Assembly (NCBI RefSeq): GCF_053078305.1
Contig: NZ_CP166879.1
Length of the DNA stretch: 64,000 bases
Strand: one strand, 5' to 3'
Shown: positions 9,001 through 12,000 of the stretch, in pieces
How the letters are laid out: each line of letters starts with the position of its first letter
Position numbering within the stretch: the first letter of the stretch is position 1
Program-made: the position numbers

Positions 9001-12000
9001 ATTGCAGGAGACATCTGGCAGGCTGCGAGCGCAGCAGCATAAGAAAGAAATCCATCCAGCAACACGGGTAAACCGCAGGAAGCAGCGCCTAACATCACGC
9101 CAGCCATTCCGACCAAATCAAATCCACCCACTTTTGCCAGAACATCAACGCCATCCTGCGGATTTGGTTGATTCAACGTAATCGCCCGGCGCACAACATC
9201 AATTTTATTAGCCAGTTTATCTGTCGGCAGGTTTGCGCCAATCCCAACCACTTCTTCAGGATCCCGGCCAGTGATTGTGCTGACTATTGCTGCTGCCGGT
9301 GTCGTGTTTGCCATCCCCAGTTCACCTACACCAAACAGCGTGACACCGTTTTTTGCCAGCTCCCGCGTATAACATATGACGTCCAAAAGCAACGTTTCAG
9401 CCTGACGGCGACTCATTGCCGGAGCTGAAGCAATATTGCCGCTACCTCGTGCGACACGCATGTTGATAAGCCCGGGGATAGGCTCAGCAGTATCAATACC
9501 AACATCAACTACGTGGACGTTAGCGCCCGCTTGTGCTGCCAGCACACACACGCCGGTTGTTCCGCGGGTCATATTTTCAGCCTGAATGGCTGTCACTTCT
9601 TTTGGGGAAATAGCGACCCCTTCCTCCCAGACGCCGTGATCGGCACACATAACCAGTACCGCTTTTTTGCCCACATGCAGTATGCCATTCAACCCCGGCA
9701 TTCCTGCCAGTTGTATGGCAAGCGCCTCCAGCCTTCCCAGGCTACCAACAGGTTTGAGTAACCCGTCAATATGCCGTTGTGCACGCGACATAGCGGCAGG
9801 ATCGATGGCAGGGATCGTATTCAGTAAATCGGCAAGTGTTTGCATGTCACGTCTCTTTATAGCAGTGCCAGCAGGAAGACCAGTTCACCAAGCTCTATAG
9901 CAGCTCCCAGCGTATCGCCGGTTTGCCCGCCCAGCGTACGTTTGAGAAGCTGACCGAGGATGAAAATCGCCACCATCGTCACCACCATAGCAGCCACACC
10001 ATGCATACCCGGCAATAATACGGCAGCAAAAATAGCGGCCAAGCCGAGTGTGACGCAGGTTTGTCGCCCATCAATTTTGCCAATGAACACATTGCCAAGT
10101 CCTTCTTCCCGGGCATAACGATGACGATACATCAATAATGCGGCAGTCCCGCGGCTGACCGCACATGCTGCCGCCAGCGATGCAAGGATCGGTTCGCCAC
10201 GCAGAGCCAACTCGCTTAATACCAGAATCTTTGCCAGTACAACAAAAATCAATGCCAGACCGCCGTGGGTGCCTAAACGGCTATCACGCATGATTTCCAA
10301 CATGCGATCGCGGCTACGTGCAGAAAATACGCCATCACAGGTATCGGCGAGGCCGTCCAGGTGGAATCCCCCGGTCATCAGCGCCAGCACAAGCACGCTA
10401 AACAGTGCCGCCAGTGGTACGCCACACCATGCCTGCAGCACCGTGAAGACCAGCCCGCTAATCGCGCCAAGCAATAATCCAATTAAAGGAAAAGTAATAA
10501 TACCGCGAGAATAATGCTCGAAATCCAGTCCCTGGGACCAGCGACGCGGTACAGGCAGACGCGTAATAAATGAGAGCATCGCCCAAAATAATTTACTCAT
10601 TTGATTTTTACTCCAATACCCGAAACCACCAGCCATACTTCATTAGCCGCAGCGGCCAGCTGCTGATTTACCCGCCCGGCAATATCACGAAAATGTCGTG
10701 CCAGACGACTCTCCGGCACAATCCCCATTCCCACTTCGTTAGTCACTAATACAACCTTTGCGGGGCAACGTTGGCAGGCAGCAATCAACGACTGAATCTC
10801 AACATGAATCGCCTGTTCCATCGCCTGATAATCCCATTCATCAGGGTCCTTATCGCCGCCATAATCAAACAACAGATTAGTCACCATTGTGGTAACGCAT
10901 TCCAGCAACACAGCTTCATGCGGGTTAATGTCTGCATGAATTAATTCATCAACATGTTGCCAACGCTCCACCGTGCGCCAGTGCGCCGGGCGGCCTTTCC
11001 GATGATGTTCTATCCGTGCAGCCATCTCATCATCAAGGATTTGCGAGGTGGCGATATACAGAACCTGTGAAGAGTCCCCAATAAGCGCCTCTGCGTGGCG
11101 ACTCTTCCCGCTCCGTGCTCCACCTGTCACCAAAATCATCATACCGACTCCTGATTCAATTGTATGATGGTATTCATTGAACAGAACAATGGATCCCCCA
11201 CCGTTGCTGACCACAAAACATTTACGCGATTAATACTGCGCGTAATATAATTAAAAATCCAGCATTCTCAACCCATTACGAAAGAAGATGGCATTGTGGA
11301 ATAGCCAGACTTCCTCGTGTTAACGTCCGATCATTGGAGTAGTCACCAAAGCAGATTTAGCCAGCATGGAACAAATATCTTTGGTGAAATGTTGGTTACG
11401 GGAAGCCGGAGCGCACAACGTGTTAGTAACCAGTGCGGTTAATAACAATGGAGTTACAGAACTTTTTGCCTTGCTGCATACAGAAGATGTCTGTCGCTAA
11501 TTTCGATAGGTTATCAGATGGGAATGATGACTTTGATACACAGAAAAGAATCAATGAGCAATGAGGGTTGCCGGGCAACCCTCATTGAATAAAACAGGAA
11601 TTACTTCGCTTCGCCGTTTTTCATTTCGCCCATAGCTTTCAGCTTTTTGGAGATATCACGGCGTTCTTTGGAGAGCTCGGCATTTTTGATGATGTAATCG
11701 TCAACGCGATCTTCATAGTCACCTTTCATGCTGGCGATGATGCCCTGGATTGCTTCAACGCTCATCCCCGGCTTGATGTAATCGCTCAGGTTGTCCAGCA
11801 GCAGGACGCGCTTCTGGTTGTCACGGATCTTTTTCTCAACGTCCTGAATTTCACGTTGCAGTTTGTTCTTACGACGGAACAGACGAACAAATTCCAGTAC
11901 GTCCTGGAATGAAGGCTTGGTAGTTTCCATTTTTATACCCCTGATAATGTGAGAGTCGGATTCGTTTAAGCAACCGCTATTCGTTAGGGCCAACATTACT

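Follow-up and report, generated by a model that had tools for sequence, protein, structure and literature searches.

The interval between cobU and yeeX (tmaR) is listed as the insertion site of the CP4-44 prophage of Escherichia coli, a site that is empty in E. coli W and Crooks (PMC3032704), and the cobU-tmaR locus has been called a genomic-island or horizontal gene transfer hotspot (PMC3155842; bioRxiv 10.1101/2025.11.17.686825). In K-12 MG1655 (NC_000913) the two genes are separated by 12.8 kb that hold IS5, yoeG/H/A, IS2, yeeP, isrC, flu, yeeRST, cbeA/cbtA, yeeW and the 5' part of yoeF. The same interval can also be occupied by a pdu locus. The whole pdu+ allele is found in two complete E. 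coli genomes, O104:H21 CFSAN002236 and DETEC-E601, and the order of the intact allele is cobT, cobS, cobU, a 145-aa truncated cbiG ORF, a cobalamin riboswitch, pocR, pduF, pduABCDEGHJKLMNOPQSTUV, a spacer of 100 bp and the convergent tmaR. A metagenome contig and an E. albertii genome carry the corresponding arrangement from pduG to pduS through pduT, pduU, pduV, 100 bp and convergent tmaR to yeeA, sbmC, dacD and sbcB. The Escherichia pdu operon ends at pduV, unlike that of Salmonella, which continues with pduW and pduX. Loss of cob and pdu in E. coli is said to have been described by Lawrence and Roth in 1996.

In the 64-kb stretch of DNA analysed here (the window), neither the island nor the operon is present between these genes. 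ORF lists, supported by translation for cobU and by the annotation of matching genomes for both genes, place cobU at 10597-11142 on the minus strand (start codon 11140-11142) and tmaR, a DUF496 gene, at 11601-11930 on the same strand (stop codon 11601-11603), leaving a gap of 458 bp at 11143-11600, in agreement with an earlier note on this DNA that had put the distance at about 460 bp. Alignment with the K-12 cobU-yeeX region showed that the window runs collinear with MG1655 as far as 2065952 and rejoins it at 2078758, the 12.8 kb in between being extra in K-12. The CP4-44 / cobU island (flu, yeeRSTUVW; GI-CFT073-cobU) belongs to the same interval, and none of its sequence occurs here: blastn with the K-12 island DNA (L001 3454-16258) and tblastn with Ag43 gave no match anywhere in the 64-kb window, and the earlier note was right that this strain is without the flu-bearing element. 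Every base of the gap aligns instead to the pdu+ allele, in two blocks, and no pdu-internal sequence has a match elsewhere in the window. This sequence comparison indicates that the gap is very probably the scar of a deletion in the pdu locus native to Escherichia and not one left by a prophage.

The right-hand part of the gap carries the most readily recognized remnant. Positions 11324-11500 on the plus strand comprise 58 in-frame codons plus a stop that correspond to residues 90-147 of intact PduV, which is the C-terminal 40% of the gene. BLASTP aligned these codons with residues 90-146 of an intact 147-aa PduV (P0002) at 93% identity (E=2e-38), and the Pfam family PduV-EutP (PF10662) was matched over profile positions 90-142 of 143 with E=7.9e-12 and 45.6 bits, above the family's gathering cut-off of 21. 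The NCBIfam model TIGR02528 gave 39.6 bits; its cut-off of 138 is set for full-length proteins, and a fragment would not be expected to reach it. Nested in this remnant is an ORF of 44 codons that starts at an internal Met and ends at 11500 (11366-11500 including the stop); the exact peptide quoted in the earlier note is present, although nine bases away from the 11357-11491 given there. The frame upstream of its ATG reads RPIIGVVTKADLAS-MEQISLV... and is open back to a stop at 11321-11323; the 44-codon ORF simply runs from a Met inside the pduV fragment to the natural stop. Its length is not unusual alone; the homology is the significant part, and the 44 residues by themselves still match PF10662 with E=3.5e-5.

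Position and spacing argue that this fragment lies where it has always been. Exactly 100 bp separate the stop codons of pduV (11498-11500) and tmaR, as in pdu+ strains, and the spacer between these convergent genes (11501-11600) has the same length in the intact loci L005, L009 and L011 and aligns with them. Position, orientation and distance to tmaR thus match those of PduV in the pdu microcompartment operon of pdu+ E. coli and E. albertii and, because intact loci share this position and 100-bp spacing, we identify the fragment as the 3' end of the pduV native to Escherichia, still in its original place. A longer remnant of 98 aa is present in strain A35; the PduV of the metagenome contig is 95% identical to it, whereas Salmonella and Citrobacter PduV are only about 65-69% identical.

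The native spacer also contains a hairpin, at 11559-11587 on the minus strand and 14 nt past the tmaR stop. Its arms, caatgagggttgcc and ggcaaccctcattg (11559-11572 and 11574-11587), are those quoted in the earlier note, which had placed them four bases away at 11563-11591, and they fold into a perfect, G+C-rich 13-bp stem with a 3-nt loop. Against shuffled sequences the hairpin has z-scores of -3.6 (minus strand, that of tmaR) and -5.1 (plus strand); in neither orientation did any of 200 shuffles fold equally well. The hairpin is common to the window, K-12, A35, both pdu+ alleles and E. albertii, where it shows one compensatory pair change, one G-U pair and two mismatches; this conservation in pdu+ strains, K-12 and E. 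albertii led us to reject it as a feature of a prophage junction. It was not called as a canonical intrinsic terminator by the terminator scan because no U-run directly follows the stem, the tmaR strand continuing with CUCAUUGAUUCUUUUCU and the other strand with AAUAAAACAGG. The element is most likely a tmaR 3'-end hairpin that acts as a non-canonical terminator or stabiliser, and in pdu+ strains it may serve as a barrier to convergent pdu transcription.

These features bear directly on the proposal in the earlier note that the CP4-44 site here is empty or keeps only a scar, with the small ORF as the C-terminal remnant of a YeeP/YfjP/YkfA-type prophage GTPase, a reading in which the hairpin would mark the junction. 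The proposal accords with the absence of CP4-44 from a place where K-12 carries it between the same genes, and with the published listing of cobU-yeeX as a CP4-44 site that is empty in E. coli W and Crooks (PMC3032704). PduV and YeeP are moreover both P-loop GTPase-like, which accounts for a resemblance of the ORF to YeeP by eye. However, the similarity does not hold up in searches, since BLASTP against K-12 YeeP returned E=13 over 3 residues and against full-length YfjP E=0.088 over 11 residues, as against the strong PduV match at 93% identity, and the hairpin occurs in all alleles, including those of pdu+ strains and E. albertii. The fragment, too, lies outside the island in K-12 and is full-length at the same position in pdu+ strains. 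Only the absence of the island survives from this proposal. The prophage-GTPase identity of the ORF is refuted, and that by the condition which the earlier note itself had set, a lack of similarity to such genes; as a whole the proposal has next to no chance of being correct.

The K-12 gene yoeF (b4538) shows how such a fragment can come to be counted as prophage DNA. It is annotated as a CP4-44 prophage gene, yet its C-terminal ~60 codons are this pduV remnant again (DNA identity about 96%), and the spacer, hairpin and tmaR come after it just as in the window. The first ~58 codons are island DNA, making yoeF a chimeric ORF across the right junction of the island. In the window the island part is absent and the pduV fragment adjoins the tail of the cbiG ORF instead. 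The pduV fragment in K-12, the C-terminal half of yoeF, thus sits just outside the right end of the island and is therefore not a prophage scar, nor is the gap that holds it here, where no island DNA occurs. In the literature searched we found no explicit statement that yoeF contains a pduV remnant.

We considered whether the 44-codon ORF or the 58-codon frame might have been kept as a working small protein with a new function. No stop codon interrupts the frame before its natural end in any of the alleles compared (window, K-12, A35 and pdu+), and RefSeq annotates the chimeric yoeF of K-12 as a CDS. The TKAD (G4) motif is kept, but the P-loop (residues 8-15 of intact PduV P0002) and DTPG (residues 52-55) have no counterpart in the remnant, so that the nucleotide-binding domain (P-loop GxxxxGKT, DTPG, TKxD) is incomplete: motifs G1 (P-loop) to G3, on which binding of the nucleotide depends, are absent. 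No Shine-Dalgarno-like sequence lies in the 12 nt upstream of the 44-codon ORF, a consensus scan found no plus-strand promoter-like site ahead of the remnant, and the microcompartment operon context is gone, no pdu gene being left in the 64-kb window. Upstream DNA differs completely between alleles (island DNA in K-12, the cbiG ORF tail here), and the fragment therefore has no conserved expression signal. Amino-acid changes between alleles build up at the C-terminal tail, and the PGAP/RefSeq entry for the fragment in matching genomes is a pseudogene, an incomplete 'EutP/PduV family microcompartment system protein' missing its N-terminus. A retained function is accordingly very improbable, and the remnant, without P-loop, DTPG motif, start codon or promoter, is to judge by its sequence a dead gene fragment and not a functional member of the EutP/PduV family, one that would not be expected to be expressed.

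The left half of the gap is equally native. The spacer that separates the truncated cbiG ORF from cobU in the intact allele is retained whole at 11143-11275 (minus strand), collinear with pdu+ allele L009, and the entire left block is 97.3% identical to L009 19813-20000. Beyond this spacer, at 11276-11330 on the minus strand, lies the tail of the 145-aa ORF, consisting of its stop and last 17-18 codons: translation of 11279-11332 gives ...RTLTRGSLAIPQCHLLS followed by a stop (...RTLTRGSLAIPQCHLLS*), which matches the C-terminus of the 145-aa proteins P0124 and P0125. Of the 351 positions of NF004463, the model for CbiG (cobalt-precorrin 5A hydrolase), full-length P0124 matches only the N-terminal 1-126 (E=1.7e-21); PGAP labels this ORF 'cobalamin biosynthesis protein, missing N-terminus', and a Pfam search with the left fragment or the 145-aa ORF gave no match. 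In the intact allele the ORF comes directly after the annotated cobalamin riboswitch and pocR. It is itself an older scar, a truncated CbiG N-terminus. A cbiP remnant beside cobU, which had been guessed from the Salmonella gene order, was rejected on the grounds that the fragment belongs to this ORF, and a structured RNA or riboswitch in the gap was discarded as well, the Rfam covariance models giving no match at E<=1 over 11000-12100.

The two blocks define the deletion junction to within a few bases. Gap bases 1-188 correspond to L009 19813-20000 and bases 182-458 to L009 37658-37934; homology to L009 therefore ends at 20000 and resumes at 37658, and homology to a second pdu+ allele, L011, ends at 2343 and resumes at 20001. 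The blocks overlap at 11324-11330 in the heptamer CGTCCGA, an imperfect 7-bp microhomology, and since two blocks of the intact allele meet here, about 17.65 kb has been deleted. At this point the left parent has CGTCTGA, or CGTCCGA in the K-12 version, and the right parent has CGCCCGA, with CGCCCGG as a variant among alleles. Such a microhomology is weak: it extends to 5 of 7 bases with the A35 or pdu+ left allele, and amounts to four exact bases (CCGA) at the junction only if the left parent had the K-12 variant. In the simplest scheme, a single illegitimate recombination at the short imperfect microhomology CGYCYGA would have removed the ~17.65 kb from about codon 127 of the cbiG ORF to about codon 89 of pduV. 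Upstream of cobU the spacer that carries the likely cobUST promoter would have survived, along with 17-18 codons from the end of the cbiG ORF and the 58 terminal codons of pduV, and the pduV/tmaR spacer and its hairpin would be untouched. The pdu+ arrangement would be the ancestral allele, still carried by about 12% of complete E. coli genomes and by E. albertii.

The island allele of K-12 can be placed on the same map. Alignment of K-12 with the pdu+ allele breaks off at L009 20117 and picks up again at 37652, and the island therefore replaces 17.5 kb of pdu DNA and does not occupy a simple site; it lies at the same place as the scar described here because, as a CP4-44-type island, it would have displaced almost the same stretch of pdu in an event of its own. 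By inspection we saw no direct repeat shared by the two K-12 junctions. Next to its island K-12 has flanking bases that the window lacks, 117 bp at the left end and 6-13 bp at the right, and since the flanks differ in this way a precise excision of CP4-44 is excluded. The empty attachment site of an integrative element is likewise not what the gap represents, as the alleles differ by more than an element, namely by the 117 bp, the 6-13 bp and ~17.5 kb of pdu DNA. The empty site envisaged in the earlier note is thus not a clean one, on two counts, the loss of ~17.65 kb of pdu DNA relative to the intact allele and the absence of flank bases that K-12 keeps.

A third pdu-less arrangement, typified by strain A35, resembles the window in that cobU and tmaR are contiguous, a cbiG ORF/pduV fusion scar lies between them and no island is present. 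It differs in being 403 bp longer, with 119 cbiG ORF codons and 98 pduV codons left, and in having its junction at another microhomology, AAAAC (L009 20286/37536). The lost intervals are nested, A35 within the interval replaced in K-12 and K-12 within the window deletion, and because of this nesting the window allele could have arisen from an A35-like or an island-bearing ancestor rather than directly from pdu+.

Of these routes, descent from an island-bearing, K-12-like ancestor would require an imprecise deletion that also took 117 bp of the left and 6-13 bp of the right flank. Such a deletion would fit the geometry, as the interval deleted in the window fully encloses the island interval and the right breakpoint (L009 37658-37664) lies within 6-13 bp of the right end of the island (L009 37652), a proximity that would be a coincidence if the window and island events were fully independent. 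Position 11327 is a C, matching GTCCGA of K-12 and not GTCTGA of pdu+ and A35, and the island allele is by far the commonest. Against this, no island base remains in the window, and of the four sequences compared over the right flank (11331-11600) the window agrees best with pdu+ strain DETEC-E601 (99.6% identity), then with A35 (98.5%) and another pdu+ strain (95.2%), and least with K-12 (94.1%). When sampled split hits are ranked, the best (H4, 99.1%) is likewise pdu+ and the other rows, at 94-97%, are presumably mostly island-bearing because the island frequency is 77%. We therefore consider island loss unlikely. The right-flank identities and the split-hit ranking favour an origin from a pdu+ or A35-like allele, the direction of events being deduced from this comparison of alleles.

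We surveyed the alleles in 5,426 complete E. coli genomes. The K-12-type right junction of the island was found in 4,171 (77%), pdu+ as judged by the presence of pduC in 642 (12%) and the A35-type scar in 202 (4%). About 330 genomes (6%) are of the window type, a count obtained by subtracting the 202 A35-type genomes from 530 with contiguous cobU and tmaR, as the search joins pieces up to 500 bp apart and so counts A35-type alleles along; sampled rows suggest that the window type makes up about two thirds of 413 joined matches. Together the four classes cover ~98% of the sample. Window-type junctions also occur on backgrounds that are only 97% identical over 551 bp, and the allele is therefore not recent.

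The arrangement of endpoints raises the further idea that native pdu was lost at least three separate times at this locus, by the A35-type deletion, the window-type deletion and replacement by the CP4-44/cobU island, a suggestion that we offer as possible but doubtful. If it were true, the nested endpoints and the right breakpoints only 6-13 bp apart in pduV would point to a recombination-prone site in pduV, and the 'CP4-44 insertion site' would be a pdu-replacement event fixed in ~77% of the species.

The scar is a real but ordinary strain polymorphism, in a pseudogene already annotated by PGAP and at a locus whose variability is known, and it reveals no new biology. Mildly new are only the exact junctions, the tally of four alleles and the make-up of K-12 yoeF as a chimera of island DNA and the pduV tail. 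The main value lies in correcting an annotation reflex: the small 'GTPase-like' ORF beside CP4-44, the C-terminal half of K-12 yoeF, is debris of the chromosomal pduV and does not derive from the prophage. Nor is there a clean empty form of the site, which exists as four alleles, pdu+, two deletion scars and the island; this view helps both to delimit the island and to type pdu status, a trait with published links to colonisation of the gut and to adherent-invasive E. coli (AIEC).

The retained cobU spacer also bears on the expression of the neighbouring genes. A consensus scan found a sigma-70 promoter-like site, TTGAGA-16-TATATT, at 11244-11271 on the minus strand, with 10 of 12 consensus matches and its -10 hexamer at 11244-11249. 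Genomic SELEX lists identical hexamers and spacing as the constitutive cobUST promoter of K-12 (PMC3946193), and by this analogy the site is likely to be the cobUST promoter and would be active in this strain. The cobalamin riboswitch of the intact allele falls within the deleted segment. With this B12 riboswitch upstream of cobUST deleted, the three genes here probably rely on the constitutive promoter that the gap retains.

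Both ends of the CP4-44 island of E. coli K-12 (NC_000913) can be placed against native pdu-region sequence, and at its right end yoeF, annotated as a CP4-44 CDS (2078575-2078931; 16076-16432 of the extracted cobU-tmaR locus, L001), is a chimera of island DNA and the tail of native pduV. The gene is composed of approximately 58 codons of island DNA followed by the last ~60 codons of pduV, with the right end of the island (2078748/9) falling inside it. The same gene is counted among the uncharacterised prophage genes in a published tally (PMC11551758). At the left end, the K-12 sequence homologous to the intact pdu+ E. 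coli allele, which belongs to a truncated cbiG ORF (L001 3454-3561; 2065953-2066060), continues to 2066060, some 40 bp beyond the annotated left end of CP4-44 at 2066020, and thus the annotated left boundary lies slightly within chromosomal DNA.

The truncated cbiG ORF is itself an older scar, that of a lost cbi operon. It encodes 144-145 aa corresponding to the N-terminal third of CbiG in both pdu+ E. coli (L009 19946-20776) and E. albertii (L007 10001-10435), where it is positioned between a cobalamin riboswitch on one side and cobU on the other, an arrangement that may bring cobUST under B12 control. Its frame is still open across Escherichia species. In the E. albertii loci L007 and L008 (10436-11900), the only genes called 3' of this ORF are cobS and ldtA, and since cobU and cobT are absent from the gene calls in that interval, the salvage genes of E. 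albertii may have decayed.

A junction of the window type, in which the truncated cbiG ORF tail abuts the pduV tail, was also recovered from strain KS-NP019 (H38, NZ_AP024123.1 1353381-1353460), where the annotation over the junction sequence is a DEAD/DEAH box helicase family protein, suggesting a differing local context or an annotation oddity. Among the proteins matched by the 98-aa pduV remnant of strain A35, which include P0012, P0014 and P0030, the last (146 aa, labelled E. coli) represents a second PduV type that shares only ~65% identity with the native remnant and looks nearer to the PduV proteins of Citrobacter and Salmonella. This divergence raises the possibility that some E. coli records carry a foreign pdu locus, either added to the native one or replacing it.

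The window carries three tRNA-Asn (GTT) genes upstream of ldtA-cobTSU (3406-3481, minus strand; 5230-5305 and 7638-7713, plus strand). The HPI and pks islands classically integrate at asn tRNAs, and the short spacings of 1.7-2.3 kb between the three genes suggest that the sites in the window are unoccupied. Other Rfam matches in the window are naRNA4 (52811-52881) and the his operon leader (22151-22274) on the plus strand, and on the minus strand the STnc240 sRNA (19779-19853), the algC RNA motif (57270-57319) and a JUMPstart element (46208-46246) upstream of a polysaccharide cluster.
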